Shown here: positions 12,371 through 28,906 of the stretch, piece after piece
Layout: each line of letters opens with the position of its first letter
Position numbering within the stretch: position 1 is the first letter of the stretch
Source of the DNA: a virus
Reading direction: 5' to 3' (one strand)
DNA: 39,540 bases
Virus record (IMG/VR): IMGVR_UViG_3300019124_000017
Span: 1 to 39,540 of that record
Made by a program: the position numbers and the translations under genes
Notes under the pieces: generated by a model
What the model saw: the letters and a program-made list of their open reading frames with translations, nothing else
Databases searched by the model: none
Told to the model about the DNA's origin: nothing

Positions 12371-13518
12371 TACCAGACCTCGAGGAAGTCGAACTCACCC
12401 CCCTCCAGCACCACGGGCACGTGGGCGAAGCGGGCACTGAGCGCGGGGACGATGAACTCGGTGGTGGGGCGGTCCCAAGTGACCGCGGCCCCGCTGGCGA
12501 TCGATGCGCGGGCACGGTTCAGCACGTCGACGGTGATGGTGCCGGCGTCGGCCATGACGGCATCGGCCGCGACCTGGAACAGCTGGCCGCCCACACTGAA
12601 TAGGTCACCGGCCACCAGAGACGGCCGACCACTGTAGGGGCTGGCTGCCGATGCCTGCTCCACCTGCGCGCCCCAGGCATAGACACCGCTGGTGCCGTCC
12701 CCCGTGTAGGTGGTGTTGGTGCTGGTGATGCCATCTGTGAGCACCAGCAGGGTGGCCCCCGCGCCGCTGCTGGAGCAGGTGGCCGTGACCTCGACTCGCC
12801 ACGAACCGTTGCCCGCGTCGGTGATGCGCCAGCTCTTGAGCCCCGCCCCTGCGGACACCACGGCGCCTGTGTCCGGTCGCATGACCAGCGTGGCGGTGGC
12901 TGAGAACCGGGTGGTGGCACCCGGCTGCACGCGCACCGCGCGGTTGCCGGACGCGTTGCGCACGAACACGGAGCCCGTGTAATCCAGCCCCGCCACATAG
13001 CCGCCAAAGCCGTGGGCCAGCACATGCTGCACGCTGGCCGTGGTGTTCTCCACCAGCAGGTCCATCGTGGTGCTGCCATCCGGCGCCGCGATTGCGTTCG
13101 GCGTGACGTTGAGGTTGGTCTTTACCCAATACGCGTTGTCCAGCTGGTCGGTAAAGCGCAGCAGGTTGGCGCCCGAAAGCAGCCCGGCGCCACCGATCAC
13201 CAACTGCGATGCGCGGGCATTGGCCGTGGCGGCGAGGGTCGGCGTGCCGCGCATCGTGCCGACAGGCACCGGCCGCCCCAGGTGGTGCATGCGCAAGCGA
13301 TGCACCCCGCCGGCCAGCTGAGAGAACAGCGCCTCCAGCCGGCCAGAATTCCGACGCAGGGCCGGCGTGTGGCGAATGCTGGCGACGAAACGCTCACCCA
13401 GGAACTGGTGGGACTGCGTGGTGCCGTTGTGGGGGCTGGCGAACAGCAACCCCGACTTCTGAATGCCCCACTCCATGGCGGCGACGCGCAGCCATTCGGG
13501 CATGTCGTAAGTGGCCAT
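12370..13518 (-). CDS. Distal-tail-protein-like protein with an inserted beta-sandwich (lectin/CBM-like) domain.
   Basis: 382 aa, immediately downstream of the tape measure. The central segment NLLRFTDQLDNAYWVKTNL...GNGSWRVEV...GVYAWGAQVEQ looks like a carbohydrate-binding jelly-roll insertion. Confidence 0.55.
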   Translation of the reverse strand: MATYDMPEWLRVAAMEWGIQKSGLLFASPHNGTTQSHQFLGERFVASIRHTPALRRNSGRLEALFSQLAGGVHRLRMHHLGRPVPVGTMRGTPTLAATANARASQLVIGGAGLLSGANLLRFTDQLDNAYWVKTNLNVTPNAIAAPDGSTTMDLLVENTTASVQHVLAHGFGGYVAGLDYTGSVFVRNASGNRAVRVQPGATTRFSATATLVMRPDTGAVVSAGAGLKSWRITDAGNGSWRVEVTATCSSSGAGATLLVLTDGITSTNTTYTGDGTSGVYAWGAQVEQASAASPYSGRPSLVAGDLFSVGGQLFQVAADAVMADAGTITVDVLNRARASIASGAAVTWDRPTTEFIVPALSARFAHVPVVLEGGEFDFLEVW

Positions 13519-13521
13519 CGG

Positions 13522-15573
13522 TTACCCCATCGCCGCCTGTGAATACAGGCCGCCGTTGCGCAGCGAGCGCTGCAGGCGCGCCTCTAGCGAGCCCATCGCC
13601 GCCTGAATCGCCGACATGGTTTCCTGCCGCGTCATCCCGGCCTGCACGTTGATGACGGTCTGCATCTGCGGGCCGCCACCGCCCTCGCCCACCGAAGGTT
13701 TCAGTGGCGTGATGCGCCCGCCGGCAGCACCAGCCATCAGGTAGTCACGGCCGTTGATCGTGGCCAGCTCGGGCATGCCGTTCTCGTTGACCGCGTAGAA
13801 CTTCCCACGCTGGATGGAACCCCCGGTCGCGCGGCCCCCGCCGAAGACCTGCGCCAGCAGCGCCACCCAGCCGGAGGCCCCACCGCCACCACTGCCCCCA
13901 GCGCCGCCACCCTGCCCATCGCCAAAGACCGCCTTTGCCAGATTGGCCGCAATGGCCTCAGCTGCCATGCGCGCGAGCATGTCGCCCCACAGCTTGAGGA
14001 TGCTGTCGAAATCGCCCTTCATGGTGCGCACGATGGTGTCGCCGAGGGCGTCTTGAATGTTGCGCTGGGCCTCGTCTGCGAAGGTGCTCATGCGCTTGAC
14101 GTGCTCATCGCTTGCCTCGTTGATCGAGCCCAGGCGGGCGCGCACCGCCTCGGCATAACGCTCAATCGCCTCCTGGGACTCTCGAGCGCCGAACGCCCCC
14201 CGCTCAAAGGCCTCGGCCAGCAGCAGCATGTCGCTGCGGGTCTTCTCCAACTGCGCGCTGGGGGTGGCCGCCAGCAGATCATTCAGGCGCTGCTGGCGAT
14301 CAGCAGCCGCCTGCGTCGCCGGGTCCAGCTGGGCCAGTTCCTCGCGCAGGCGCACGATGGCCTCGGTGCGCGCGGCGCTCTCCGGCATCGTGAGCAGTTC
14401 GTCCAGCGTCTTGTTCAACTCCGCGATGCGCGCGGCGTCGGTGTTCTCCAACGCCTTGATCGCCGACTTGAACGACTCGGGGATCTCAGGGCCGACGAAA
14501 GCCGGCTTGTCGATCTTGGCCTTGCCCTCCACCTTGGGCAAAGCGGGCAGACTGAGCTTGTCGCCGGTGGCCAACTCAGCGCGCCGAAACGATTCCTTCG
14601 CGCCGTCAGGCGACGGCGAGCCGCGGCGGTCCAGCTCATTGAAGCGCTGTTTGGCGAGCCGCAGCTTTTCGTTTGTCTCGTCAAGCTCCCTCTTGAACTG
14701 AGGGCCATAGAACCCGTTCTCGAGCCCGTTCTTCAGCACGGTGGCCCGGCGGTTCAGCTTCAGCACCTCATCGGCGGCGGCCGCCAGCTCGCGCTTCGAC
14801 TTGAATTCCTTGTCGAAGCCGAACAGCGCAAAGAAGCCGTCGTTGTTCACCCGCTCGAAAAGCGAATTCAACGCAGGAAGCAGCGTCGAGGTCAGTTCAC
14901 GCGCGGCTGCGCCTGCATTGGTGCGCAGCGCGGCCATCTGCTTGTTGAACGCCTCGGCCGCGTCGGCTTGACTCGTCGTGACGGTGGCGTTGAGCTGCCC
15001 CTGCTCGGCCAGGTTCTTCAGGAACGGGGCCGCCTCCCTCACCGACTTGCCAAAAAGCTCCTGCGTGATGCGCGCCTTGTTGCCGTCGTTCTCAAAGCGA
15101 GCCAGCGCCACCGCCACCTGGCGCAGCGCCTCTGCAGGGTCAAGCCGGCGCAGCTGCTCGACGCTGACGCCGATCGCCAGGAGGGCTTGCGAGGCGCCGT
15201 TCTTGCCGTCCGCCTCCGACAGCACACCGTTGAACTTGACCAGGATGGACGAAATGTCCCCCAACGCCGTGCCGGTGCGCAGGCCAACGTCTTCGAGCGC
15301 GGACAGGTTTTCGACGGTGGAGCCGGTGGCGTCGGCCAGATCGTTCAGCGCCGCCAGAGCTTCTGTGGTTTGGCCGATCAGCGCAGTGACTTGCACCCCA
15401 GCAAAAGCACCGGCCAAGGCAGACCCGACCCCCACCGCCACGCCTTTCAGGCGGGCGAAGCTGGCCTCGATCTTGGCCGCGTGCTTCTCAGCCAGGCGGC
15501 TGGCTTTGTCCAGGCCCTCCTGGAGCTTGGCCAGCCGCGCCTCCAGGTCGATCGATAGGGTGGCGATGGGCAT
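13522..15573 (-). CDS. Tape measure protein.
   Basis: 683 aa, Ala/Leu/Glu-rich and helical, with a Gly-rich patch. It follows the G/GT chaperone. Confidence 0.85.
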   Translation of the reverse strand: MPIATLSIDLEARLAKLQEGLDKASRLAEKHAAKIEASFARLKGVAVGVGSALAGAFAGVQVTALIGQTTEALAALNDLADATGSTVENLSALEDVGLRTGTALGDISSILVKFNGVLSEADGKNGASQALLAIGVSVEQLRRLDPAEALRQVAVALARFENDGNKARITQELFGKSVREAAPFLKNLAEQGQLNATVTTSQADAAEAFNKQMAALRTNAGAAARELTSTLLPALNSLFERVNNDGFFALFGFDKEFKSKRELAAAADEVLKLNRRATVLKNGLENGFYGPQFKRELDETNEKLRLAKQRFNELDRRGSPSPDGAKESFRRAELATGDKLSLPALPKVEGKAKIDKPAFVGPEIPESFKSAIKALENTDAARIAELNKTLDELLTMPESAARTEAIVRLREELAQLDPATQAAADRQQRLNDLLAATPSAQLEKTRSDMLLLAEAFERGAFGARESQEAIERYAEAVRARLGSINEASDEHVKRMSTFADEAQRNIQDALGDTIVRTMKGDFDSILKLWGDMLARMAAEAIAANLAKAVFGDGQGGGAGGSGGGGASGWVALLAQVFGGGRATGGSIQRGKFYAVNENGMPELATINGRDYLMAGAAGGRITPLKPSVGEGGGGPQMQTVINVQAGMTRQETMSAIQAAMGSLEARLQRSLRNGGLYSQAAMG

Positions 15574-16159
15574 CAGGTGTCCTCATTGGTGGGCGGCCGG
15601 TGCAGCTTGATGACGCACAGGCGCCGCAGCAGCAGCTCCACGTCCGTCACGCCGAGCAGCTGCACCACAAACGGCAAGCCGGCCCAGTCAAAGCCGCCGC
15701 TGCCGTTGGCCAGCAGCGCATAGGCCTCGAGCGCCACCTCGTCGTCGGCGGTCAGCTGCGGCGGTGCCTCGCCCTCGTACTCGATGCCGGCGCGTGCATC
15801 GAGCAGGGCGATCAGTTTTTTCCTGCGGCCTCGCGTGCCTTCAGGTGTTCGCCGATGGCCTTGGCCAGGTGTTCGAAGACCTTCTCGATCCAGTCGATCC
15901 GGTCAGCGACCAGGACCGCCCAAAGCTCAGGCTCGAACGGCACCGGCGAACTGCCGCCGACGCCAGCGCCCAGCAGATCCGACTCAACGAAGCCGTCCCA
16001 GCCGACCACATGACGGGCAGCGGCATCCACCGGGGTGGCGTGCCGGAAGCCGTAGAACTCCGCCTCGGGCGGGCGGCGCACGCGCACCCGCTTACCCGGC
16101 GCCAGGTCAACCCAGGCCTCACGCTGGGCGAGCACCTGCTGCAGCAGCTTCTCGCTCAT
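15573..16159 (-). CDS. Tail assembly chaperone GT-like fusion made by a programmed -1 frameshift.
   Basis: The -1 frame is open for 80 codons after A_AAA_AAC (LIALLDARAGIEYEGE...KLHRPPTNEDT). Its TGA at 15573-15575 overlaps the tape measure ATG. Confidence 0.7.
15812..16159 (-). CDS. Tail assembly chaperone (gpG-like).
   Basis: 115 aa, between the major tail and tape measure genes. It ends ...GGA AAA AAC TGA, which carries a slippery heptamer. Confidence 0.8.
   Translation of the reverse strand: MSEKLLQQVLAQREAWVDLAPGKRVRVRRPPEAEFYGFRHATPVDAAARHVVGWDGFVESDLLGAGVGGSSPVPFEPELWAVLVADRIDWIEKVFEHLAKAIGEHLKAREAAGKN
15815..15821 (-). other. Slippery heptamer A_AAA_AAC, a -1 ribosomal frameshift site.
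   Basis: The plus strand reads gtttttt. In the G frame the codons are GGA AAA AAC, followed by the stop. Confidence 0.7.
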
Positions 16160-16800
16160 CAGGCTGCACCCTTGAGCACCCAGCCGTCGACGGTGATGCC
16201 GATTTGCCCGCTGGCCAGCTGGCCAGCCGCGACCGACTCACCCGGCACCGACGGCACCCCGCCAAAGACACGCACGGAGCCATCCGCCAGGGTGATGCGG
16301 TACACCTGTGCCACCTGGCGGCGGGCAGCGCTCTCGATCGCATCCATGACCGCTGTGTTGAAGGTCTGGTTGCGAATGTCGATGGTGACGTCTTGCGCGC
16401 TCAACAGGCCGTTGATGTTGCGTTTCTTGACGTCCTGCAGGCGGGTGTCGTCCAGTTTGTCGGCCTCGCCGCCGCCAATGGCATAGCCGGCCGCCTCGGC
16501 GAGCGTGCCCCAGGTGGCCACCGGAGTGAAGGTGCCGGCCGTGAAGGTGGTGTAGTCGGTGGTGTCCAGCCCCTGCAGTTCAAAGGAGTTGGTCGCCTGG
16601 TTGTAGACCCGGGACACCTGCCCGTCCAGCTCCACCATGCCAGCGCTGACGGCCCAGCGGCCCACGGTGCCGTTGGTCATGGCGTGCGCCGAGCTGGTGG
16701 CCACGCCGGGCATGGCTTTGGTGACGGCGGTCACCGTCTTGACGGTGCCGAACGTGAGGGCAACTTCGATCCGGCAGTTGCGGCCGATTGCGGTGGGCAT
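16159..16800 (-). CDS. Major tail (tube) protein.
   Basis: 213 aa, in the position upstream of the chaperones. AAAGGAG RBS. Beta-rich sequence. Confidence 0.75.
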   Translation of the reverse strand: MPTAIGRNCRIEVALTFGTVKTVTAVTKAMPGVATSSAHAMTNGTVGRWAVSAGMVELDGQVSRVYNQATNSFELQGLDTTDYTTFTAGTFTPVATWGTLAEAAGYAIGGGEADKLDDTRLQDVKKRNINGLLSAQDVTIDIRNQTFNTAVMDAIESAARRQVAQVYRITLADGSVRVFGGVPSVPGESVAAGQLASGQIGITVDGWVLKGAA

Positions 16801-16842
16801 GAAATGCTCCTTTCAAAGCACAGTGCCGGCGCGCCGGCGGTT

Positions 16843-16871
16843 AGAAATGAAAAGGCCACCAGAAGGTGGCC
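16843..16871 (-). terminator. Intrinsic-terminator-like hairpin between the tail-completion gene and the major tail gene.
   Basis: The minus strand reads GGCCACC-TTCT-GGTGGCC followed by TTTTCATTTCT. Confidence 0.55.
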
Positions 16872-16898
16872 CGTTGAGAAGAAGGAAGGCGGGAGGCG

Positions 16899-17258
16899 CT
16901 ACTGCCACCACTCGATGGACAGGGACACGCAGTCGAGGCCGGTCTCGGCGTCGTGTGCGTCTGCACGCTCAAGCACCGTCGCGCCGCGGATCGCCCCAGC
17001 GCCGGAAAGGGCGGCCACCACCTCATCGGCAACAGCATCCGCGCCGGAGGCGGTGCGAGCCCAGCATTGCACCGAGAACGTGACTTGATCGGCGTGCAGC
17101 TCGCCGTTCAACCCATAGACCGGCGCGTGCACCGAGGCATAGACGACAAAGGCGCTTGGCCCCTGCTGGATGGCATTGCGAGCGATGTGGCCGCCGACCA
17201 AGGCGGCCAGCGGCGCGTGGCCGCTCAGCAGGGCATGGAACTCGGACTCGGCGCTCAC
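16899..17258 (-). CDS. Tail completion/terminator protein (DUF3168-like).
   Basis: 119 aa. Position and size fit the gene between the gp10-like protein and the major tail protein. Confidence 0.6.
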   Translation of the reverse strand: MSAESEFHALLSGHAPLAALVGGHIARNAIQQGPSAFVVYASVHAPVYGLNGELHADQVTFSVQCWARTASGADAVADEVVAALSGAGAIRGATVLERADAHDAETGLDCVSLSIEWWQ

Positions 17259-17737
17259 AGGGCATCCTTCCTGGCATTCAGCCGCTGGATTTGCGGGCCG
17301 ATCGTGGCCTTGAATTTGTCCAGGGCCTGGCCGAGCTTTTGCGCGGCGCCTTGCAGCATTCCCACCCCCGGCAGCTTTGATGTGCCGAACTCAAGGAACC
17401 GCCAGTAAAACGGGTCGTCCTTGCTCTTTGCACCGCGCAGCGCGGCCTTTGCCGGGCGCACGTTGACGAACACGCCGACGTCCCCCGCCCGGCGCGCGAG
17501 CTTGCTGGTGCGCACACTGATGGCCTTACGCACCGTGCCGGGCTTGCGGTAGGGTGCGCGGGCCGCGTTCGTGGGCGACAGCACCGGGGTGCGCGCCCGG
17601 GCGTCCTTTTGAACGATGCGCGCCCCGGCGGCGAGGGCGTTGCGAAGTGCACGCACGCGCAGTTTTGAAGGCAGCGATCTCAGCGCCTCGCGGTAGTCAG
17701 GAAGGCCGTGCACCTTCGCCTGGATCTCATCGGCCAT
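17255..17737 (-). CDS. HK97 gp10-family head-tail joining protein.
   Basis: MADEIQAKVHGLPDYREALRSLP...FYWRFLEFGTSK. Start at the ATG at 17737; the longer tracked ORF is rejected. Confidence 0.7.
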   Translation of the reverse strand: MADEIQAKVHGLPDYREALRSLPSKLRVRALRNALAAGARIVQKDARARTPVLSPTNAARAPYRKPGTVRKAISVRTSKLARRAGDVGVFVNVRPAKAALRGAKSKDDPFYWRFLEFGTSKLPGVGMLQGAAQKLGQALDKFKATIGPQIQRLNARKDAL

Positions 17738-18080
17738 CGCGCACCCCTTGTGTGCAGCGCAGCTCGAGCAGCGCCCGCCCACCATCGACGTCCACCGGCT
17801 GGCCAATGATCTCGAAGGGCTGGCCGCGCCACAGCACGCGCATGTCTGCCGTGACGTCAGCACGCCAGCGGATGGTGAACTTGGCGTCGAGCGTGGCTTG
17901 CAGCTGGTCCGCCGCTGCAAAGTCGCGCCCGGCGCCGGGGCTGACCGCGGCCCACACGGTGGGCTGCGTCGGCAGGTTCTCCCAGGTTTCAGCACGCTGG
18001 CCAAAGCCGGCGCTGCCAGCCACGCGGCGCTGCAGGGTGATGCGTTGGTCAAACCGGCCAGCAGGCAGCGACGTTGTCAT
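17727..18080 (-). CDS. Head-tail adaptor (head closure protein).
   Basis: 117 aa. GRFDQRITLQRR...VWAAV.P..GRDF...FTIRWR pattern. Confidence 0.7.
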   Translation of the reverse strand: MTTSLPAGRFDQRITLQRRVAGSAGFGQRAETWENLPTQPTVWAAVSPGAGRDFAAADQLQATLDAKFTIRWRADVTADMRVLWRGQPFEIIGQPVDVDGGRALLELRCTQGVRDGR

Positions 18081-18637
18081 GCATACACCCGATAGGCATC
18101 CAGCAGCGCGCCGACGTGCGGCAGCGTCTGCAGCTTCTCAGTGCCGCTGGCCTCGCGGTTGCGGTAGTAGTGGCCCACGTGCAGCAGGATCCACAGGCGC
18201 AGCGGCTCGGGCACCGCGGCGCCGGTGGCCCCGTAGCCGGCGCGGTACTGCACGCGCACGGCGTTGGGCTGCTCGCGCGTGGCAGGCCAGGCGGCGCCGG
18301 GCGCGGGCACCAGCCAGCCGGGTTCCGACGCGGTGTCCACCTGGTAGTCCTGCGGCGCCAGGGTGTAGGCCTGGCCATCGGGCGCGGTGTATTCCACGCT
18401 GTCGACGGCCAGCAGCGGTGGGTGCTCGAGGCGAATCGCGTCAGGGAAGCCGTCTAGGTGCTGCTCCCACGTGGTTTCGACGAGGGTGCGCTGCACCTGC
18501 TCCTCGCAGGCGGTGCGGGCGGCCACGATCAGGGCCTGCACGAGGGCGTCCTCGTCGGTGCCGTCAATGCGGTTCCAGGCTTTCGCTTCGGCCAGGCTCA
18601 CGGGCTCGACGGCCGGCGGGGTGATGCGACGGGGCAT
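18077..18637 (-). CDS. gp6-like head-tail connector protein.
   Basis: 186 aa. VSLAEAKAWNRIDGTDEDALVQALIVAARTACEEQVQRTL is the typical N-terminus. Confidence 0.7.
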   Translation of the reverse strand: MPRRITPPAVEPVSLAEAKAWNRIDGTDEDALVQALIVAARTACEEQVQRTLVETTWEQHLDGFPDAIRLEHPPLLAVDSVEYTAPDGQAYTLAPQDYQVDTASEPGWLVPAPGAAWPATREQPNAVRVQYRAGYGATGAAVPEPLRLWILLHVGHYYRNREASGTEKLQTLPHVGALLDAYRVYA

Positions 18638-18643
18638 GGCGGA

Positions 18644-19171
18644 CTACCTTGCACGGCGCCGGGGCGCGGCTTGTTGGCTGCGCGCGCCCATGGCGGGGGT
18701 TGTTCTGACAGTGACGGCCTGCTGCGGCCGCACGGACACCACGGCGCCGGGGACGAAGCCCGCACCGGCCTGCGCACGGGCGAGCAGGCGCACCCGCAGC
18801 GACGGCACACCAAACGCAGAGGCCGAGAGCACAGCGGCAGGAGCCACCGGCACCCCCTGCAGCCCGACGACCAGCGGCGCGCCACACGCCGACACAGCGG
18901 AGATGGCGGGCGCCTGCACTTGCGCCAGCTGCAGACGGACGATGGACGGCCCACCGACCAGCGCCGTCGAGCCCAGCGATCCGACCTGAAGGGCCGCGAC
19001 GCTGGTGCGCAGGATTGCCGGCGCCCCGAACGCCGCCGACGACGACAGGCCCGCGGGCGAGGCCTGTGCACGCCAGGCGACGGCGGGCGACCCCACCGCC
19101 GAGGCCGCCGGAACGCCCTGCGGGTAGACCTCGGCCGTGAGCGCCGATTGCAGGAGAAGCAGCAGCATCAC
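18644..19171 (-). CDS. Ala/Ser/Pro-rich repeat protein with about 6 degenerate units of the type S.SAFG.P.L.
   Basis: 175 aa. The start overlaps the upstream stop (GTG at 19171 or ATG at 19168). It is the only operon-strand ORF in this interval. Confidence 0.5.
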   Translation of the reverse strand: MMLLLLLQSALTAEVYPQGVPAASAVGSPAVAWRAQASPAGLSSSAAFGAPAILRTSVAALQVGSLGSTALVGGPSIVRLQLAQVQAPAISAVSACGAPLVVGLQGVPVAPAAVLSASAFGVPSLRVRLLARAQAGAGFVPGAVVSVRPQQAVTVRTTPAMGARSQQAAPRRRAR

Positions 19172-21069
19172 GCGAAGAAGAAGGCGCCGCTGACGTCGTT
19201 GGCGGCCAGGCCGGTGCTGGTGTTGTCGGTCAGGCCCTTGGCCGACGTGACGCTGTAGGTCATCGCCGTGGCGAAACCGATGCCGCCGGGAAGGTTGACG
19301 TCGCTGCGCCCGCCTGCGGGAATGTCGATCGTGAAGCTGGCCGAAGTCGTCCCCAGCGTGGGCGCGGTGGCGTTGAACACCTTCACGCTGCGAACACCGC
19401 TGGAGCTGTTCTGCAGTTGCCAGCCGATCAAGCGGCCCGCGCTGGCTTTGATGGTCGCAGCGGCGGGGGTGGCGGGCGATTGCACCGCCACAAACGAGGC
19501 GGCGCCCGTGGCGTTGGCACGGTATTGCACGCCCACATCGCCAATCGCGTTGGTGCTGGCTGCCGCCGTTACGGTGCCGGAGACGGGCTGCGTGCCCACT
19601 GACGGCGCGATCGGCTGATCGGCGCCCGACAGGTTGATCGCCGTCGTGCCGCCCGTGGTGGCCGTGGTCAACCGCAGCCTGAAGTACCTGGCCGCCACGT
19701 TGACCTGCCGCAGGATCGAGCCCGCGTTGAACGTCGTGCTGGACGCGCCGGCCTGGTCATACAGCGTCGCGGTGACCACGTTGGCGAAGTCGGGCGTGCT
19801 TGACCATTGCGCGGTCACCACCCCGCTCGTGCCCATGCTCACGCAATGGATCATCAGCGCTCGCAGCTGCGAGCAGTCGACCACGATCAGGTCGGTGTTG
19901 ATCGCAATGGCACCGGCCTGGGAGTAGGTGACGGTGGTCAACGGCGGGACGGCGGCGACGATGCGCTCGGTTTCCGAGAAGATCCCCACCTCGACCTTGT
20001 TGTGGTTCTTGGTGGTGATGTAGTCCACCGTCACGGTGGTGGAGCTGGCCGCGGCGCCGGTGTTCTCGCAGTCAATGGCCGAGGCCATGATGTCGTAAGC
20101 CGCCGGGATGACCCGGGTGTGCTCGGCGACCTGCACGCCGTTGACGAAGAACTTCACCGCCTCGGTCATCTGCTCGATTCGATACTCGAGCATGTTCGTC
20201 GTCGCCATCGGCGCCGGCAGCGTGACGGTGTAGCTTTCAACTTCGCCGCCGGCCGGCCCGGTCGTCGGGTTGCGCCCGGTCTCGGTGATCACGGTGGTGG
20301 CGTTGGTGCCGTCCAGCCGGAACCTGCAGTACCAACGCGGGTTGGCGCTGCGCTTCTCACGCAGGCCAATGTTGAAGCGCTGGTTGGCGATGCGCTGGCT
20401 GACCTGCACACGCTGCCGGCTGATCAGCGGCGAATAGTCCACCTCTCGCTCGAGCAGCGTCAACGAACCGGAGGTGGTGCCCGTGGTGATCACCGCATTG
20501 CCGCCGCTGACGGTGATGGAACCGCCGGAGCCGGTCTGCGGGCGCACCTGCGCGCGGCTGGCCGCGCCGGTGCCAGGCGTGCCGCGGTAGGGCTCGGTCA
20601 GGTAGATGGTCTCGTCGTCACCGATGCCGGCAATCTGCGTCCATGCCGATTCCGGGTCAGCGTCCAGCTTGAAGTAGTCCCGCAGGCTGGCAGCGCTGGC
20701 TGCAAAGCCGGTACCTGTGACCACATCGTCGGCCACCGTGCAGGTGCCGATCGGCACCGCCAACGAGGCGTTGGCGAAGTTAACCCGGTAGGTGCCTTCG
20801 TCCGTCAACACCGCGCCACGCACGGACAACGCGCCGCCCGGGTCCGTGCTCAACTCGGCGCGGTCAGCGCCGGGAGGCGCCCCATAGCTGGGCCAGTAGG
20901 CCACCTGCGTGGCCTTGAGCTTGAACGGGTACGGCGTTTCTTCCGTCACCTCCGTGGCCACGCCCTCCTCTCCATAAGCGAGCTTCGCCCGCTGAAAAAG
21001 GCTGCCCCCGACGTTGTCGCCAGCCACCGCGGTGCCGGTGGCTGGAAGTGCTGGGTTGGTGTAGGCCAT
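19168..21069 (-). CDS. Large unknown virion-type protein, beta-rich, with jelly-roll-like C-terminal domains.
   Basis: 633 aa, operon-coupled, with Thr/Ser/Gly/Val-rich composition typical of fibre or receptor-binding proteins. Confidence 0.6.
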   Translation of the reverse strand: MAYTNPALPATGTAVAGDNVGGSLFQRAKLAYGEEGVATEVTEETPYPFKLKATQVAYWPSYGAPPGADRAELSTDPGGALSVRGAVLTDEGTYRVNFANASLAVPIGTCTVADDVVTGTGFAASAASLRDYFKLDADPESAWTQIAGIGDDETIYLTEPYRGTPGTGAASRAQVRPQTGSGGSITVSGGNAVITTGTTSGSLTLLEREVDYSPLISRQRVQVSQRIANQRFNIGLREKRSANPRWYCRFRLDGTNATTVITETGRNPTTGPAGGEVESYTVTLPAPMATTNMLEYRIEQMTEAVKFFVNGVQVAEHTRVIPAAYDIMASAIDCENTGAAASSTTVTVDYITTKNHNKVEVGIFSETERIVAAVPPLTTVTYSQAGAIAINTDLIVVDCSQLRALMIHCVSMGTSGVVTAQWSSTPDFANVVTATLYDQAGASSTTFNAGSILRQVNVAARYFRLRLTTATTGGTTAINLSGADQPIAPSVGTQPVSGTVTAAASTNAIGDVGVQYRANATGAASFVAVQSPATPAAATIKASAGRLIGWQLQNSSSGVRSVKVFNATAPTLGTTSASFTIDIPAGGRSDVNLPGGIGFATAMTYSVTSAKGLTDNTSTGLAANDVSGAFFFA

Positions 21070-21076
21070 TGCGTGC

Positions 21077-21487
21077 TCAGAGCCTGAAGATCTTGTCCGC
21101 GCCGGTGTCCCAGGTCACATCCACCTGCGTGGCACCTGCCGCCACAGGCAGGCCGGAGGCGGTGTCAATGAAGGCCACCAGCGGCGAGGTGGCCTCGCTG
21201 CCGCTGTCCACATAGATCACGATGGCCTCGATCGACGGCGCCGAGGTGAGGCCGGTGAAGCTGGGGTTGGTGGTGCTGCTGAACACACCATCGGTCACCG
21301 ACTTGCCGGCGAGCGTGACGGCGCTACCGACGCGGGCGCCGGCTGAAATGGAACTCAGAAACTCATGCGCCCCCGAGTAGGTATAGGCGCCGGTGTCGAC
21401 GAGGATCGCGCGCACGGTGCCCGCCAACAGGTTGCCGCCACCGGCGAGACAGCGCTCTTTGAACTTTGGGTACAGGGCGTTCGCCAT
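21077..21487 (-). CDS. Small unknown structural-type protein.
   Basis: 136 aa (MANALYPKFKERCLAGGGNLLAGTVRAILVD...). GGAGG RBS. Confidence 0.6.
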   Translation of the reverse strand: MANALYPKFKERCLAGGGNLLAGTVRAILVDTGAYTYSGAHEFLSSISAGARVGSAVTLAGKSVTDGVFSSTTNPSFTGLTSAPSIEAIVIYVDSGSEATSPLVAFIDTASGLPVAAGATQVDVTWDTGADKIFRL

Positions 21488-21500
21488 GAAGGGCCTCCGG

Positions 21501-23330
21501 TTAGGCGGTCTGCAGCACCTGCTGCGCTTGCGCGTTGCGGTACTCCGAATCGTTGGCGTAGGACTTCCAGCCGGTGTTCACGGCGCAGCTGAGCGACCCC
21601 ACCGGCACCTTGAGTCGACTGCTGCCGTTGAACGTCGCGTTCTGCATGCCGCCGATCTCGGTGTTGTTGATGAGGCGCACGGCGTTCGCGCAGCTGTTGC
21701 GCGTGTCGATCTGCACCGCCACACCCACCTCGCCGGGCGACGACCCGCGACGGAACAGGCAGTTCGCCACCGTCACCGATTGGTTGGCCGTGGGGACCGC
21801 GTCGGTAGTGACCGCAACCGCCGGCCCCATTGGCGCGTCGAACTCACAGTCGACCACCGCCAGGTGGCCGAACTGCACGTTTGCGCCGCTGTTGTAAATC
21901 GCAAGGCACTGCGCGTCCCACCATTTGCCGTCAGCGAGCGCGTTGCCGTAGTTGCGCGTCTGTCCGCCGAAGCGGCTGGTGTAGCTCGTCACCAAGCCGC
22001 TGTTGTTCGCCGCATTGCGGGCGGCCGGGATCATCGGCAGGCGGTTGAAACTCTTGTAATTGCGCACAAACCCGGAGCCATGGATTTGATCGGGGGCGCG
22101 CATGTTGTAGACCCGGCCGCCGATATCCAGGCCGGTCAGGCTGGTACCCGTGCCGTTGAACGCGAACGCGCGGGAATACTGCTGCCCAGCGCCGTCGAAC
22201 AGGAACTCAGGCTCGACGGTCAGCCCGTGGATGTACCCCGCGCCGCCGACGCCGCGGGCGATCGCCGAGTGGTTGGCGCCACGGATGTGAGCCTGCAGGC
22301 CGCTGCTGCTCTTGGCAGCGAAGCGGATGTTGCGCACGCATGCGTTGGTGCCGAACTGCACCAGGTCGTTGAACCCGCCGTTGTGGTGCCCGCTCTCGAA
22401 CGGGTAGAACGGCCGCTCCTTGATGAGCGCGTCGATGCGGGGCGCCAGCGTGCAGTTCTGCAGTTCGGCGGTCGTGTTGAGCGGGCCCTCGTTGACGGCG
22501 ACCGTCGGGCGATACGGCGAGGTCGCCAGAATCTGCGGCTCGAATCGCCAATTGCTGCCACCGTTCAAGCGGAAGGCGTACTGCCCGCCGCCCAGGCATT
22601 TGATGGTGTCGTCCAGCGTCCAGTTGTCCAGGCCCTGAATGCGCATGAAGTTGTGGAAGCCCTCTTGCGTCAACACAGCGATGCCGCCCCACACCGTCGC
22701 CGGGTTGCCCTTCGGGCTGTAGAGGTACAGCGTGCGCATGGCGGCGAACGACGTCGGCGTCGTGTCGCTCGTGCCCCATGTGTTGCCGCTGTCGACCTGC
22801 GTCCAGGCGTGCGATTCGTTGTCGCCCAGCGTGGCGTAGCTGGCCGCCTCGAACAGTTCGTTGTCCGGGTCGAGCACAGCCAGCCGCTTGTCGGTCAACG
22901 CCGTGGCGCACCGCCACACGCGCACTGCTTTGTTCGACAGGCCCGCGGTCACGAACGTCGTGCTGGTGCGCCAGATTCCGCCGCCCAGGTCCGTGAAGTC
23001 GGCCGTGCTGGTCAGCGTGCGAATGTCGCTGAAATGCCAGTTCGCGGTGGGGTCGTACGCGGTGATCAGGATGCCGTTGGCGCACTGCACGCTGATCGTC
23101 GCGTTGGCTGCGACGTTGTTGTTCGTGAAGTTGCCGAAGTAGCCAAACGCGCCGTTCGAGCTGAAGTCGAACGCATCCACGAAGATGCGCACCGTGTCGT
23201 TGATGCCCGGCGGGTTCTCCGACGCGATCAGCTGGTTCATCTTCGGCCAGGTCTGCACGCGGTTCGCGTAGCTCTGCCCGTTGTTGCTGTTGTTGCCGGT
23301 CGGGCCGATGTAGTAGTCCTTGAACGGCAT
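21501..23330 (-). CDS. Right-handed beta-helix (pectate-lyase-fold) protein, a putative polysaccharide depolymerase.
   Basis: 609 aa from MPFKDYYIGPTGNNSNNGQSYANR. It has many Asn/Gly-rich coils (NNTEIGG, VANCLF, VVDCEF). The ATG at 23330 lies 1 nt after the upstream stop. Confidence 0.6.
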   Translation of the reverse strand: MPFKDYYIGPTGNNSNNGQSYANRVQTWPKMNQLIASENPPGINDTVRIFVDAFDFSSNGAFGYFGNFTNNNVAANATISVQCANGILITAYDPTANWHFSDIRTLTSTADFTDLGGGIWRTSTTFVTAGLSNKAVRVWRCATALTDKRLAVLDPDNELFEAASYATLGDNESHAWTQVDSGNTWGTSDTTPTSFAAMRTLYLYSPKGNPATVWGGIAVLTQEGFHNFMRIQGLDNWTLDDTIKCLGGGQYAFRLNGGSNWRFEPQILATSPYRPTVAVNEGPLNTTAELQNCTLAPRIDALIKERPFYPFESGHHNGGFNDLVQFGTNACVRNIRFAAKSSSGLQAHIRGANHSAIARGVGGAGYIHGLTVEPEFLFDGAGQQYSRAFAFNGTGTSLTGLDIGGRVYNMRAPDQIHGSGFVRNYKSFNRLPMIPAARNAANNSGLVTSYTSRFGGQTRNYGNALADGKWWDAQCLAIYNSGANVQFGHLAVVDCEFDAPMGPAVAVTTDAVPTANQSVTVANCLFRRGSSPGEVGVAVQIDTRNSCANAVRLINNTEIGGMQNATFNGSSRLKVPVGSLSCAVNTGWKSYANDSEYRNAQAQQVLQTA

Positions 23331-23331
23331 G

Positions 23332-23778
23332 TCAGGCTCCCACCGCCACCGGCAGCGAGCCGGTGCCATTGAAGGCCGTGGTGCGCAGCGCCATCGCCGT
23401 CACCCCTGCGGGCTTGCGGAACCGGCGGCCGCTGCCGTCCGGGTAGAAGAAGAAGCCGAACACCTGGCCGTTGGAGGCGTCCTCCACCTGCACCGCGGCC
23501 TGCGCCACGCTGCCAGTGGGCAAGCCGATGCTCACCTGCAGCACACCCCCATCCGGCACGGCGGCCAGCGAGATCGGGGCGCCCAGGCCCGTGCCGCTGA
23601 TGGTTTGCGTGGCCAGCACGATGGTGGCGGTACCGCCTGCCAGTGCCGATTGGCCATCCATGCCAGCGCTGTAGTAACGCGCCAGGCCCAGCCCCACGAG
23701 GCGGGCTTCTTCGGCCGTGTCGAGCGTGTGGACGGAGTGGAACTCCAAGCCACCCCAGGAGGTGAGCATCTGGATCAT
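23332..23778 (-). CDS. Unknown protein in the head module.
   Basis: 148 aa, beta-rich, operon strand. Confidence 0.55.
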   Translation of the reverse strand: MIQMLTSWGGLEFHSVHTLDTAEEARLVGLGLARYYSAGMDGQSALAGGTATIVLATQTISGTGLGAPISLAAVPDGGVLQVSIGLPTGSVAQAAVQVEDASNGQVFGFFFYPDGSGRRFRKPAGVTAMALRTTAFNGTGSLPVAVGA

Positions 23779-23789
23779 GAGGGGGCCTT

Positions 23790-24005
23790 TCAGGAGGGAT
23801 TGCGGGTGCGCTTGCGCGGCGCGGGCACGGGCGCCGGCTCGGCCGGGGCGGGTGCCGGCGGCGCCGCGTCTGCGTAGACGGCGGCCTGCGCGTCCTCGAC
23901 GAAGTGGCGCGCCACGTCCTCGGGGAAGCGCGCGACGTCGCCCTCGCCGAAGCTGCCGTAGACCGTGCTCGCGGCGGTGCGAGTGAAGCGGATGGTGCGT
24001 TGCAT
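23790..24005 (-). CDS. Small unknown protein with a Pro/Ala-rich tail.
   Basis: 71 aa. GGAGCA lies 8 nt upstream of the ATG. Confidence 0.5.
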   Translation of the reverse strand: MQRTIRFTRTAASTVYGSFGEGDVARFPEDVARHFVEDAQAAVYADAAPPAPAPAEPAPVPAPRKRTRNPS

Positions 24006-24024
24006 GTGCGGTGCTCCAGAAACA

Positions 24025-24055
24025 CCACGGGGCCGCGGGTAAGGCGGCCCCGTGG
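24025..24055 (-). terminator. Perfect 12-bp stem-loop just downstream of the major capsid gene.
   Basis: CCACGGGGCCGC-7 nt-GCGGCCCCGTGG, followed on the minus strand by TGTTTCTGG. Confidence 0.55.
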
Positions 24056-24070
24056 GTCAGGGGTTGGCGG

Positions 24071-25225
24071 TTAGGCCGGGGTCAGGTCGCCGTAGCGAAC
24101 GGCGGCCGGGCGCTCCACAGCCAACATGCAGCGACGCTCAGCGCGGATGGTCACCAGGTTGCGCTGGAAGTTGTCGCCGTCGCTGTCGCTCAGCTCCACC
24201 ACCACGCCCTCGCGGTTGTAGAAGGTGGCCGCCATGGCCAGCGAGGCCACCAGCACGTTGTCGGCCGTGATGGCGTTGGACACGGCCACCGGCAGGCCCC
24301 ACAGGCGCGGCGTGCCTTCCTGCTTGGGGTCGCCGATCAGGTACCGGCCCTGGCTGTCCTTCAGCAGCTCGATCGCGGCCCAATCAGTCGGGTTGAGCAC
24401 GATCGCATCGGCGGGGAAGTCAGCCGCCCAGCAGTCACCGATGATCCGGCGGATCAGGTCCAGGCGGGTGGCCCCGGCGCCCAGCGCGGCGGCGGTGTAG
24501 CCGTGCGCGGTGAAGTTGCCGGCCTTGGTGAAGCCGCTCATGTTCGGCGCGGTGCCGTTGCCGTTGATGATCTGGTTTTCCACGCGCAGGTTGACGCCGT
24601 ACACCATGCGGGTGTTGATGTAGGCAGCCAGCGCGGCGTTGTCGTTGGCCAGCTGGCGGCTGATCTTGATCCAGTGGGCCACGGTGGCCACCGGCTCGGA
24701 GACGGGCGTGGTGGTGATCGAGCTTTCCGGCTTCAGGGATCCCTCGGCCGTTTCTGCCGCGGCATTGGTGAACACGTTTTCACGCACGTAGTCCACCGCG
24801 TTGCTGCTGGTGGGCAGCGAGGCCAGCAGCGCCTCGAGCGTGAGGTTACGGAAGGCCCCACCAACGATGCCGGGGCGGCGGTCGCTGTACGTGTTGCCAA
24901 CAGCGTTGGTGACCGTGTTCTTCAGTTCGGCGCGCGCCTTCTGCGCGTGGCCACCCGCGAATGCCTTGTAGGCTTCGCATTTGGTGAACAGCTGGCCCAG
25001 GCCTTCCTGGTCGGCCGACTGCGCCGGCGCGGTGAGGCCCTTTTGCTCCAGCTGCAGCAGGCGCTCGGCCAGCTCGCGCTGCTGGGTGCCCAGCGTGTCC
25101 ATCGCGGCCTTGGTGTCGGCGGTGACCTTGCCGAGGTTCTTCAGTTCGGCGTCGGCCTTGTCGGCCTGGGCTTTCAGGGCGGCCTCGATTGTGTCGAGGC
25201 CCTTCATCACTTGTTCGAGAGACAT
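24071..25225 (-). CDS. Major capsid protein, HK97 family.
   Basis: 384 aa. It has an N-terminal coiled delta-like region (MSLEQVMKGLDTIEAALKAQADK...) and then the HK97-fold pattern. Confidence 0.85.
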   Translation of the reverse strand: MSLEQVMKGLDTIEAALKAQADKADAELKNLGKVTADTKAAMDTLGTQQRELAERLLQLEQKGLTAPAQSADQEGLGQLFTKCEAYKAFAGGHAQKARAELKNTVTNAVGNTYSDRRPGIVGGAFRNLTLEALLASLPTSSNAVDYVRENVFTNAAAETAEGSLKPESSITTTPVSEPVATVAHWIKISRQLANDNAALAAYINTRMVYGVNLRVENQIINGNGTAPNMSGFTKAGNFTAHGYTAAALGAGATRLDLIRRIIGDCWAADFPADAIVLNPTDWAAIELLKDSQGRYLIGDPKQEGTPRLWGLPVAVSNAITADNVLVASLAMAATFYNREGVVVELSDSDGDNFQRNLVTIRAERRCMLAVERPAAVRYGDLTPA

Positions 25226-25292
25226 GGTGCGTTTCCTTTCGGGCAAAGAAAAAGCCGCCTCGAGGGCGGCTGACAGTGGCGGGATGCGCGCG

Positions 25293-25976
25293 TTATGCAG
25301 GCACGCGGAAGCGGGCCAGCCGCTCGCTGAGGGCCTGCAGGGCTTTCGCCTCGACGTCGCTGCCGGCGGGTTCCCCCTCGGCGGCCAGGATCGTCTTGGC
25401 GCGGCTGACCAGCGCAGCGGCCAGCCCTTTGCTGAGGCCGCCTGCATCCCGCAGGAAGCGCTCGAAATCGCGGATGGTGAGAATGTCCTCGACGGCCTCG
25501 GCCATGTCGTCGGCCTTGACGCTGGCCACGCGGGCGGCGCCATCGGCCGGGAACACCACCGGGCTGAACTCCATCAGGTTGGACCACTTGCGGATCACTC
25601 GGCCGCCTTCGGTCTCCTCGTAGTCGCCCTTCTTCAGGAAGCCGCCGATGCTCAGGCCGTCCAGCGTGCCGTGCTTCATCGCGGCGTGCACGTCGTCGGC
25701 CAGGCTCATGCCCAGCGTCAGCTCGCCCTCGACGTAGAGGCCGTGGTCGTCTTCCTTCGCCACGGTGCACTTGGCGATCGGCATGCGCCACTCGTGGTTG
25801 AAGAACACCTTGGGCTTGCCGTTGTTGCGCAGCGTGCTCTCGAAGGCGCCCTTGATGATGGTGTCGCCATGGCTGTCGACACCGCCGAACACCGACGCGT
25901 AGCCGGCGAAGTGGCCGGTCTTGTCGTCGAGCTTCAGCTGAACATCACTGAGCTTCAGGTGTTTGCGTACCAGCAT
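25293..25976 (-). CDS. Prohead protease, HK97 family (S78).
   Basis: MLVRKHLKLSDVQLKLDDKTGHFAGYASVFGGVDSHGDTIIKGAF... GGAGG RBS. Confidence 0.85.
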   Translation of the reverse strand: MLVRKHLKLSDVQLKLDDKTGHFAGYASVFGGVDSHGDTIIKGAFESTLRNNGKPKVFFNHEWRMPIAKCTVAKEDDHGLYVEGELTLGMSLADDVHAAMKHGTLDGLSIGGFLKKGDYEETEGGRVIRKWSNLMEFSPVVFPADGAARVASVKADDMAEAVEDILTIRDFERFLRDAGGLSKGLAAALVSRAKTILAAEGEPAGSDVEAKALQALSERLARFRVPA

Positions 25977-27198
25977 TGGGGCCTCCGGTGGGCTGGGTCT
26001 TGCCGAGCATGTCGATCGGCACGAGGTTGGATTGCACGGTGAGCTGGTCCCCACCCGGCAGCGGCGGCAGGTTCTCCAGCTGCCGCGCTTCGTTGCGGGT
26101 GAGGATGCCGTTTTGGCTGCCGGTGGCGTAGACGCCGAAGCGGTCCTTGATGTTGCCGCGCAGCAGGGCGTCGAGGCTGAACTCGACCGTGTAGCGGGCG
26201 CGCTGCGCGGGGGTCAACACGCGCTTGCGCACGGCCTGCTCGATGCTGACCAGCATGGGGCGAATGGTGAACTTGTGGAACCCGTCGATGATCTGCTCGA
26301 CCCCGCTGCCCCAGGTGGTGACGTTGCTGTGGTGGGCCAGCACCGGGGGTACGTCGAACCAGCGGCAGATCTCCTCCACGCTGAAGCGGCGGGTTTCCAG
26401 CAGCTGCTGGTCTTCCGCGCTCATGCTGATCTGCTGGTACTTCATGCTCGCCTCGAGCAGGTACAGCCGGGCGGTGTTGCCGCGCGCCATTTCCGAGAAG
26501 CGCTCCAGCAGGGCCTCGCGCTGGCCAGGCTTGAGCGTGCTGTCGATCATCAGCACGCCGGTGGGCTTGCCGCCGTTGCCGAACAGGCGGGAGGCGCTGG
26601 TTTGCGCGGCCGCGGCCTCGTGCGTGGTGGCGCGCATGAAGTCCAGCTTGCTCAGGCCCACGCTGCCATTGCCCAGGCCCTTGAGGTGCAGCACGTTCTC
26701 GGCGGCCAGCACCGCCACGTTTTCGCCCAGGCGGTACAGGTAGACCTCGCTGCCGTCGTCGAGGATCCGCAGCTCCACCTGATCGGCCGGCATCGGCCAC
26801 AGTGCGACGGCCTCGCCGCGGTTGTCGCGGTCGATCCGCGCATACGCATTGCCGCGCAGATCGTGGTTCATCAGCATGGCCCGCCAGAACTCGAACGGCG
26901 TCATGCGGCTGTTGGGGCTGTCGTGCAGCAGGCTGTGCAGCCGCGACGTGCGCGCCACCGTGCGCCGGCCGTCGCCCAGGTCTTCGTAGGCGAAGAACGG
27001 CAGCGAGGCCACGGTGGTGGCGCGACGGTCCACGCAAGACCACACGGCCGACAGCTGCAGCGCGCCATCGAGCCCGAGGTTGGCCGTGTCGGGCACCAGC
27101 GAGGCCGAGGGCAGCGCCAGCTGCGTGCCGGGGCGCTCGGCCAGGGCGTTGCCACCCCAGCGGAACATGCCCAGCAGGGACTTCAGGGCGGGCACCAT
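25945..27198 (-). CDS. Portal protein, HK97 family.
   Basis: 417 aa, between TerL and the protease. ATGA overlap with TerL. Confidence 0.85.
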   Translation of the reverse strand: MVPALKSLLGMFRWGGNALAERPGTQLALPSASLVPDTANLGLDGALQLSAVWSCVDRRATTVASLPFFAYEDLGDGRRTVARTSRLHSLLHDSPNSRMTPFEFWRAMLMNHDLRGNAYARIDRDNRGEAVALWPMPADQVELRILDDGSEVYLYRLGENVAVLAAENVLHLKGLGNGSVGLSKLDFMRATTHEAAAAQTSASRLFGNGGKPTGVLMIDSTLKPGQREALLERFSEMARGNTARLYLLEASMKYQQISMSAEDQQLLETRRFSVEEICRWFDVPPVLAHHSNVTTWGSGVEQIIDGFHKFTIRPMLVSIEQAVRKRVLTPAQRARYTVEFSLDALLRGNIKDRFGVYATGSQNGILTRNEARQLENLPPLPGGDQLTVQSNLVPIDMLGKTQPTGGPNAGTQTPEAQ

Positions 27199-28865: not shown

Positions 28866-28906
28866 GGCCAGCCCGTAGCTGTCCCACTCCTCGAGGTGGG
28901 GCGGAA

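Follow-up and report, generated by a model that had tools for sequence, protein, structure and literature searches.

The viral record IMGVR_UViG_3300019124_000017 of IMG/VR, analysed here over 39,540 nt (positions 1 to 39,540; hereafter the window), carries a block of five genes between its HK97-type major capsid gene and the gene of its gp6-like head-tail adaptor. The five products are named after their lengths in amino acids (aa) and follow one another as gp148, gp609, gp136, gp633 and gp175. Both ends of the window share an exact 127-bp direct repeat (positions 1-127 are identical to 39414-39540), indicating a closed circular assembly and thus a complete phage genome of ~39.4 kb rather than a fragment; its G+C content is 68%. 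The structural genes lie on the minus strand in the order TerS, TerL, portal, S78-type protease and HK97-type capsid gene, followed by a 71-aa open reading frame (ORF) and the block. Downstream of the block are the gp6-like adaptor, Hc1, Neck1, the tail terminator, the major tail protein, chaperones and the tape measure protein (TMP), and then the distal tail genes for Dit, a 189-aa tail protein, a DUF6950-like protein, a 1125-aa J-like fibre protein, a 143-aa protein and a holin. As known from its genes and predicted structures alone, the block is interpreted here, with moderate confidence, as encoding a modular, virion-attached accessory appendage that binds and degrades a surface glycan. 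The features of the locus are as follows.

24071-25240, minus strand: major capsid protein (MCP), HK97-type, the upstream border of the slot (Pfam Phage_capsid 2.2e-45, phrog_10 6e-69)
24025-24055, minus strand: terminator- or attenuator-like hairpin behind the capsid gene, with 11 G-C pairs in a 12-bp stem
23790-24005, minus strand: 71-aa ORF, an ordinary small post-capsid gene of the lineage
23332-23778, minus strand: gp148 gene (148 aa), with two modules, anchor and C-domain
23644-23778, minus strand: gp148 residues 1-45, putative portable N-terminal virion-anchor module, recognised from shared N-termini
23338-23634, minus strand: gp148 residues ~49-147, small domain with anchor-free homologs, candidate docking platform for gp609
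21501-23330, minus strand: gp609, probable right-handed beta-helix polysaccharide-degrading enzyme, with a tentative fold from weak AlphaFold2 (AF2) and Foldseek results
21077-21487, minus strand: gp136, homolog by sequence of the Bxb1 gp31 'tail wing arm' and putative small bridging subunit (phrog_644)
19168-21069, minus strand: gp633, lectin-like protein with predicted beta-sandwich domains (AF2 model, Foldseek)
18644-19171, minus strand: gp175, linker- or fibre-like partner protein with repeats (homolog in contig L090, phrog_13352)
18077-18637, minus strand: gp6-like head-tail adaptor, the downstream border of the slot (Phage_connect_1 2e-8, TIGR02215 1.9e-30, phrog_442 3e-30)

All ORFs of the block are on the minus strand and have coding-type third-position G+C content (GC3) of 0.84-0.92, with 0.84 for gp175. 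These values resemble those of the flanking genes, thus giving no sign of a recent foreign insertion, and this scenario was rejected. The spacers from the 71-aa ORF through the gp6-like adaptor measure 11, 1, 13, 7, -4 and 6 nt, which argues that the block genes are coupled; the negative value reflects a 4-nt overlap of the gp175 start with the gp633 stop. The longest ORF at the gp609 gene would encode 622 aa from position 23369, whereas its homologs begin at the methionine of the 609-aa form, which was therefore taken as the start. An earlier note on this DNA had described a block of genes after a hairpin and the 71-aa ORF, and the ORFs, their coupling and the hairpin were all confirmed. The four genes to which it confined the block are real, but the 175-aa gene also belongs to the cassette, since its family often follows gp633 homologs, so that the block spans 18644-23778 (or extends to 24005 if the 71-aa ORF is included). 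The fibre-like, Thr/Ser/Asn/Gly-rich composition was likewise borne out: in gp148, gp609, gp136 and gp633 these residues make up 33-35% and charged residues 11-15%, resembling Dit, the J-like protein and the major tail protein and differing from head and neck proteins. For gp175, the respective values are 23% and 8%.

Among cultured relatives, the capsid gene is followed almost directly by the adaptor gene, as had been assumed. Ralstonia phage Dina (74% nucleotide identity in TerL), Burkholderia phage phi1026b and Mesorhizobium phage P1 (41% and 38% capsid identity, respectively) have the MCP gene, at most one gene of 70-75 aa and then the adaptor gene, and relative to them the five-gene block is extra. 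We scanned the N-terminal motif of gp148 (described below) in IMG/VR, where it occurs in 18 loci, and in JGI/ENA metagenomes, with 13 loci of which 11 are informative; related contigs and loci are labelled here by L-numbers. The gene carrying this motif occupies the capsid-to-adaptor slot in all 18 IMG/VR loci and in all 11 informative metagenome loci. Overall, the same slot was found in 29 of 31 informative contigs, the two exceptions being L065 and L066, and in two loci the gene lies between gp6 and Hc1 rather than between the capsid gene and gp6. The capsid proteins encoded ahead of it are 53-70% identical to that of the window over most of its length (with values above 80% for short end fragments), and a homolog of the 71-aa ORF usually stands between the two genes. 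A single gene of 315-657 aa, usually of the SGNH-esterase type, fills the slot in most relatives. By this comparison of sequences, the block is an expanded version of a lineage-wide variable slot and not a one-off insertion, and the earlier picture of an inserted block is to that extent not supported.

The slot opens with two conserved features. The hairpin (24055-24025, reading along the minus strand) lies just past the MCP stop codon, has a T-rich tail, TGTTTCTGGA, and a folding energy of -32 kcal/mol in RNAfold. A strong hairpin directly 3' of the capsid gene is present in all 15 relatives examined, at a conserved position, and such an attenuator suggests that the genes behind it are expressed at low copy number rather than as a capsid-wide decoration. 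The 71-aa ORF has a conserved N-terminal part of ~36 aa and a Pro/Ala-rich tail; at least 14 related contigs share residues 1-36 at 43-56% identity, in each case in an ORF that directly precedes the anchor gene. Small genes stand at the same position in phi1026b and Mesorhizobium P1, one of them annotated as FI-like; no significant family match to the 71-aa ORF was found in Pfam or PHROGs. In one related contig, L098, the slot extends over 6.8 kb and contains an anchor protein, an 827-aa PKD protein, a lysozyme and neighbouring small genes. Within L098 10072-12457, the lysozyme (Pfam 6e-23) is flanked by small membrane-like proteins, giving the look of a lysis cassette between head and neck genes. 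These lysis genes suggest that the slot is a general cargo site behind the capsid attenuator, and gene position alone is then weak evidence for a head or neck location of the products. Each part of the block is of a known kind, the set comprising an exchangeable anchor, a depolymerase carried on an adaptor, a lectin domain and a subunit of the wing-arm type. What is new is that a cargo slot between capsid and adaptor genes is conserved, that it is expanded to five genes in this genome and that several large unannotated families gain a first context for their function.

An exhaustive HMMER search for gp148 homologs revealed a protein of two modules, an anchor (residues 1-45, MIQMLTSWGGLE...EEARLVGLGLARYYSAGMDG) and a C-domain (residues ~49-147). 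The anchor follows the motif MIQMLxxW[NG]G.E...EExRL[IV]..GLAR.Y..G.DG, in its family form M-x-IQ-[MF]-L-x-x-W-[NG]-G-x-E ... EE-x-RL-[IV]-x-x-GLAR, and is 39-70% identical to the anchors of 19 family members, where it stands N-terminally in proteins of 97-655 aa. In the longer ones it is followed by a GDSL/SGNH esterase, a SASA esterase with fn3, a polysaccharide deacetylase or a beta-helix-like body, and such swapping of one anchor among enzymatic bodies is the usual architecture of exchangeable receptor-binding proteins. With its N-terminal motif and a gene downstream of a related HK97-type capsid gene, gp148 is an anchor protein of this lineage. The two exceptions to the slot are both assemblies from the Sequence Read Archive (SRA). 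In L065, an anchor-bearing 655-aa protein is encoded after the J-like gene, among tail-fibre genes, and the TMP, Dit, tail and J-like proteins share ~40% identity with those of the window. In L066, the gene of an anchor-SASA-fn3 protein comes after one tail-fibre gene and one for fibre assembly.

Homologs of the C-domain without the anchor are separate proteins of 109-231 aa with 46-56% identity, and in three sequence contexts (L087, L088/L089 and L090/L091) the gene of such a stand-alone protein directly precedes that of a gp609 homolog. There are thus three arrangements: the anchor fused to the C-domain, as in this genome; the C-domain alone beside the enzyme; and the anchor fused directly to enzymes. 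This pattern of fusion, fission and adjacency suggests that gp148 tethers gp609. No Pfam or PHROG match to gp148 was obtained, nor was a T4 gp10-like branching domain or another known adaptor domain detected in it; searches of PDB with sequences and profiles gave nothing usable for the anchor. Translated searches (tblastn) of 50,697 phage records returned no match for gp148, gp175 or gp609.

The gp609 protein is probably a beta-helix polysaccharide depolymerase, a prediction that is plausible, not established. Its AF2 model (pLDDT 60, pTM 0.61) contains a beta-helix part with regular short strands, and all top Foldseek matches are beta-helix depolymerases or tailspikes, including the HK620 tailspike, fucoidan lyase, polygalacturonases and chondroitinase B, at a best E-value of only 0.0096 and TM-scores of 0.15-0.3. 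The earlier description of an enzyme-like beta-helix protein fits the kind of matches found, but these are weak. The Pfam family Beta_helix was matched only marginally (0.099), in one gp609 homolog, and PDB sequence and profile searches yielded nothing usable. Only four homologs were found, one of them 95% identical and located on a 100-kb contig. The protein has no N-terminal virion-binding domain of its own, and the anchor motif of the lineage sits on gp148. Another of the four, 31% identical, was observed on the chromosome of Sorangium sp. So ce1151 (L006 8001-9950), where it stands alone among metabolic and regulatory genes and outside any phage context; the conserved N-terminus of gp609 (D5, G12, G18, N23 and others) is common to it. 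This stand-alone gene suggests that gp609 is an enzyme of cellular origin.

Among the block proteins, only gp136 has a family match in Pfam, PHROGs or NCBIfam, to phrog_644 (1.1e-28). It has at least 912 homologs, and identities among the 120 listed are 54-72%. A profile of 38 homologs matched chain Ra of PDB entry 9d93, which is the 'tail wing arm' gp31 of mycobacteriophage Bxb1, with an E-value of 6.3e-17 (residues 29-127 against 1-100 of 106), so that on sequence grounds, and across the entire small beta-domain, gp136 can be regarded as a clear homolog of Bxb1 gp31. The 3' half of its gene (21077-21260, minus strand) shows 72-77% nucleotide identity to cultured Pseudomonas and Mycobacterium phages. 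No other part of the block resembles cultured phages at the nucleotide level, and the conservation of this stretch is unusually strong across very distant hosts.

In the Bxb1 virion, gp31 and the brush protein gp33 bind gp30, the enzymatic base of a wing on the tail spike, with gp31 connecting base and brush, and the whole wing is dispensable (PMC12646305). In addition to the homology of gp136 and gp31, the block resembles the Bxb1 tail wings (D-Ala-D-Ala carboxypeptidase base gp30, arm gp31, brush gp33) in gene order, as Bxb1 genes 30, 31 and 33 encode an enzyme, an arm and a large distal protein in the same succession as gp609, gp136 and gp633. However, gp609 is probably beta-helix-like and not a carboxypeptidase; gp633 has no sequence similarity to any PDB chain, those of 9d93 included; the block genes lie in the head-neck region and the Bxb1 wing genes in the tail region; and the host here is of the Gram-negative type, as judged from high-GC proteobacterial phage relatives, and not a mycobacterium. 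That gp136 might bridge an enzymatic base to a distal subunit is a parallel in gene order only.

For gp633, the AF2 model (pLDDT 82.5) comprises a ConA/GH16-like beta-sandwich at residues ~100-355 and C-terminal beta-sandwiches at 378-483 and 525-633, preceded by ~100 highly conserved, extended residues that were predicted with low confidence. Foldseek against PDB retrieved laminarinases, other GH16 enzymes and galectins (2vy0, 4dfs, 3azx) with E-values of 3e-7 to 1e-5, target-normalised TM-scores (TMt) of 0.51-0.60 and root-mean-square deviations of 3.4-4.5 A over ~200-215 columns, placing the modelled central domain in the ConA-like beta-sandwich fold. The best viral structure matches are uncharacterised phage proteins. 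The catalytic GH16 signature E-x-D-x(x)-E is lacking; the candidate stretch R297-x-E299-x-[L/M]-T-E303 contains no Asp. As the sequence signature of GH16 is absent, we treat gp633 as a lectin-like binder and a possible hydrolase, a lectin-type glycan binder being the safer reading of the model.

The gp633 family has more than 346 full-length members, nearly all of ~610-660 aa, with ~50% identity and 58 invariant residues, none of them annotated. Among representative bacterial genomes it occurs in only four, those of an unclassified betaproteobacterial metagenome-assembled genome, Roseateles, Rhodoferax and Novosphingobium. In the tblastn search of the phage records, matches covered the last domain only and came from the Caulobacter phages S2B and KSC, Synechococcus phage S-SRP01 and an Octadecabacter virus. 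The S-SRP01 protein (291 aa, L105 5470-6345) and S2B gp004 (277 aa, L001 7560-8393), which match the last beta-sandwich of gp633 by sequence, are annotated as hypothetical and encoded in the head and packaging regions of T7-like podophages.

Upstream of gp633 homologs are terminases and portals of four Pfam families (SU10, lambda, P22 and HK97/SPP1 type), and downstream of them are capsid genes of ~5 Pfam families, SU10 adaptors and four clusters with Gp77, the fibre-tail adaptor of phage GP4; Gp77 adjoins gp633 homologs in SU10/GP4-like contigs only. A gp136-family gene directly precedes the gp633 homolog in this genome and in L003, L014 and L019, with gaps of ~8-40 nt, and is found nearby in L051 (723 nt upstream) and L004. 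A universal gp136-family partner upstream of gp633 was considered and rejected, as an iterated profile reached only 11 loci and hhalign comparisons with two other families gave a probability below 1%. In L003, a Comamonadaceae prophage with a gp633 homolog, we also observed a 540-aa Peptidase_M14 (zinc carboxypeptidase) gene (14606-16228) in an unusual place, between the lambda-type portal and protease-capsid fusion genes.

The last protein of the block, gp175, starts with 'M-LLLL-Q' and continues with 4-5 copies of a degenerate S-x-x-[F/V/C]-G-x-P repeat. It is therefore a repeat protein, as had been described, but the repeats exist at the protein level only; a DNA tandem repeat was searched for as their source, was not found and was rejected. 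No Pfam match to gp175 was obtained, and PDB sequence and profile searches gave nothing usable. It is 43% identical to a 125-aa protein of L090 with four clean 'GIASAEAFGTPTF' repeats, for which a match (4e-20) to the N-terminal repeats of phrog_13352, a minor tail protein family, was obtained. In 16 of 35 loci, this genome included, the gene after the gp633 homolog has a product that starts with 'MLL(W/L)Q(L)NL...' and then runs into degenerate repeats. In L090, a podophage contig, homologs of gp136, gp175, the gp148 C-domain and gp609 are clustered, the next gene encoding the tail hub Hc3, which suggests that these families form a recurrent, mobile tool-kit. A parallel between L090 and genes gp50-gp54 of Pseudomonas phage H66 was rejected as positional only, the gp136 homolog alone being shared.

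Taken as a cargo cassette of virion-appendage genes, the block would consist of two adaptor-plus-effector pairs and a repeat linker. The 45-residue anchor of gp148 would plug into the virion, and the C-domain would hold gp609, the probable depolymerase that has no anchor of its own. The gp136 arm might bridge to gp633, a putative multi-lectin 'brush' that would bind surface glycan and possibly cleave it, and gp175 may serve as a flexible repeat linker or fibre. Such a non-essential appendage would capture, and locally strip, the capsule, exopolysaccharide or lipopolysaccharide (LPS) of the host during adsorption; binding would be reversible, and degradation would precede engagement of the receptor by the J-like tip, in a manner comparable to that of Bxb1 wings and branched depolymerase systems. 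The earlier suggestion of a glycan-binding and degrading apparatus is supported by the homology of gp136, by the occurrence of the gp148 module on esterases and deacetylases and by the lectin- or glucanase-like fold of gp633, and its option of a relocated receptor-binding cassette fits best, given that the same anchor appears in the tail-fibre loci of two contigs. Its placement on the capsid or neck has lost ground, as it follows from gene position only and the same slot holds lysis genes in L098.

Branched or modular receptor-binding systems, in which an anchor or adaptor carries separately encoded depolymerases, include gp63.1/gp66 of E. coli phage G7C, TSP1-4 of CBA120 and the multi-depolymerase phages of Klebsiella. 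The block shares with them a short conserved N-terminal anchor exchanged between enzymatic bodies, an adaptor (here probably gp148) that would hold an enzyme devoid of a virion-binding domain, and the use of SGNH esterases and, probably, beta-helix enzymes as effectors. In contrast to these systems, gp148 has no detectable T4 gp10-like branching domain, the contacts proposed here are deduced from gene fusions and adjacency, and the genes lie between capsid and neck genes and not at a tail-fibre locus.

As to the mounting site of the putative appendage, we place the tip or side of the tail, where Bxb1 wings are found, slightly ahead of the neck, the capsid surface being the least likely place. 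The tail is favoured because the solved homolog, Bxb1 gp31, is located at the tail tip; because the same anchor occurs in tail-fibre loci, one of them in a phage with a homologous tail; because relatives of gp175 are annotated as minor tail proteins; because four of the five block proteins are composed like tail-tip proteins; and because no other side-fibre gene follows the J-like gene. The stretch after the latter (6573-7419, minus strand) encodes the 143-aa protein and then a holin-like 141-aa protein (phrog_785 6e-8), so that a holin stands in the usual place of a side tail fibre or tailspike gene, none of which was found there. We also sought a docking partner by correlating anchor divergence with that of the capsid, portal, gp6, Hc1, Neck1, major tail protein, tape measure and large terminase, but all Spearman coefficients were at most 0.34; being weak and derived from non-independent pairs, these correlations were not used as evidence.

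Several observations weigh against an enzymatic, tail-borne appendage. The fold of gp609 is a low-confidence call (pLDDT 60, Foldseek E-values of at least 0.0096), and no catalytic residues were identified in it. No match to gp633 was found among Pfam, PHROG, NCBIfam or PDB sequences, including none to Glyco_hydro_16 at E<=0.1. The position of the block genes, consistent across relatives, favours a head or neck role, and gp633 homologs are nearly always found in head modules. The pairing of gp136 with gp633 is not universal, most gp633 homologs being preceded by an unrelated small gene. Finally, anchor divergence tracks the capsid slightly better (r 0.34) than gp6 (0.02) or the portal (0.11), all of these values being weak.

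A possible alternative, the leading idea of the earlier note, to which we give limited credence, is that the anchor docks on the portal or adaptor region and that the enzymes and lectins form a collar of fibres at the head-tail junction. It draws on the position of the anchor gene, which in 29 of the 31 informative contexts is flanked by the capsid gene and gp6 or by gp6 and Hc1, and on gp633 homologs adjoining portal and adaptor genes of phages with four portal families, in SU10/GP4-like contigs directly upstream of Gp77 and the SU10 adaptor. In podophage GP4, 15 copies of gp77 surround the head-to-tail adaptor and hold three sets of fibres (PMC11445570), providing a precedent for small adaptors that hold several fibre types near the portal vertex, and the whiskers of Alteromonas phage R7M were proposed to be the product of a gene of the head-tail module (PMC8265664). 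The likeness to GP4 lies in the gp633 homologs and their repeat partners immediately upstream of Gp77 and adaptor genes; it differs in that the present genome is of the siphovirus type, that no Gp77 (PF23148) was detected by Pfam among the 71-, 148-, 136- and 175-aa proteins, and that PDB searches gave no homology of gp633 to any solved fibre. Collar, whisker and neck passage structures (lactococcal phages, R7M, T4 Wac) are likewise accessory, non-essential fibres encoded in or near head-tail joining genes, but tblastn with gp148, gp609, gp633 and gp175 against the phage records retrieved nothing relevant to them. The neck placement is further weakened by the lysis genes in the slot of L098, by the anchor in the tail-fibre loci of L065 and L066 and by the tail-tip location of gp31, the sole solved homolog; anchor divergence, set aside above, does not track gp6 or the portal either.

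A broader version of the neck placement is doubtful. In it, gp136, gp633 and the repeat protein would serve as a plug-in of universal use, docking at the neck or portal vertex, rather than the tail tip, of phages with at least four unrelated portal and capsid types, and would be anchored here by a lineage-specific 45-residue peptide. If true, this phage would be a siphovirus with a multi-enzyme lectin collar at its head-tail junction, a neck-mounted glycan-processing organ; to our knowledge, such an organ has not been described for Gram-negative siphophages.

Fibres or decoration on the surface of the HK97-type shell, at vertices or hexamer centres and similar to phi29 head fibres or Hoc-type adhesins, are improbable. 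In their favour, the genes immediately follow the capsid gene, the anchor is nearly confined to the capsids of one lineage (53-70% identical; the divergence correlation, again set aside, is highest here but weak), and C-terminal gp633 domains are encoded between the scaffold and capsid genes of S-SRP01. However, the block lies behind a conserved strong attenuator hairpin together with 12-copy neck genes, and direct binding to the capsid would hardly be compatible with the fact that gp633 homologs of ~50% identity accompany at least five unrelated capsid families. Searches of Pfam, PHROG, NCBIfam and PDB revealed no sequence or profile similarity of the block proteins to solved decoration or head-fibre proteins of the lambda gpD, T4 Hoc or phi29 gp8.5 type. 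Least probable of all are non-virion late genes (morons) for soluble enzymes and lectins that are released at lysis and degrade exopolysaccharide around the burst or modify the host surface: gp609 lacks its own anchor and has an ordinary chromosomal gene as a remote homolog, the slot can hold non-structural lysis genes and gp633 is highly conserved across very different virions, but the anchor architecture of gp148 is that of virion-attached receptor-binding proteins, gp136 has a homolog among solved virion subunits, the relatives of gp175 resemble minor tail proteins and the genes are tightly coupled in translation with neck genes.

Two side observations concern other parts of the genome. The Dit gene (12370-13518, minus strand) is of an 'evolved' type, encoding 382 aa as compared with 197 aa in L065; the L065 protein aligns only to residues ~6-118 and 300-368, which leaves ~180 inserted residues, and residues 117-296 match PHROG tail-protein families. 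Possibly, the insert provides the tail tip with an additional carbohydrate-binding module. In addition, a megablast summary lists one Mesorhizobium phage record with 90-95% identity somewhere within 16000-29200.

The interpretation of the block as a virion-attached, glycan-binding and degrading appendage defines, across a whole lineage of uncultured HK97-type siphophages, a hypervariable receptor-binding and depolymerase slot that separates the capsid gene from the adaptor gene. Since annotation pipelines ignore this slot when host range is considered, predictions of host range or depolymerases from the tail-fibre locus only would miss its genes. The analysis also offers a first clue to the function of three large unannotated families, namely gp633 (more than 346 members), gp136/phrog_644 (at least 912, now tied to a solved structure) and the 'MLLxxQ-repeat' proteins. 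The adaptor-effector gene pairs could be reused to equip phages with new enzymes. Should the appendage turn out to be located at the neck, this would change the view of where siphophages can carry glycan-processing enzymes.

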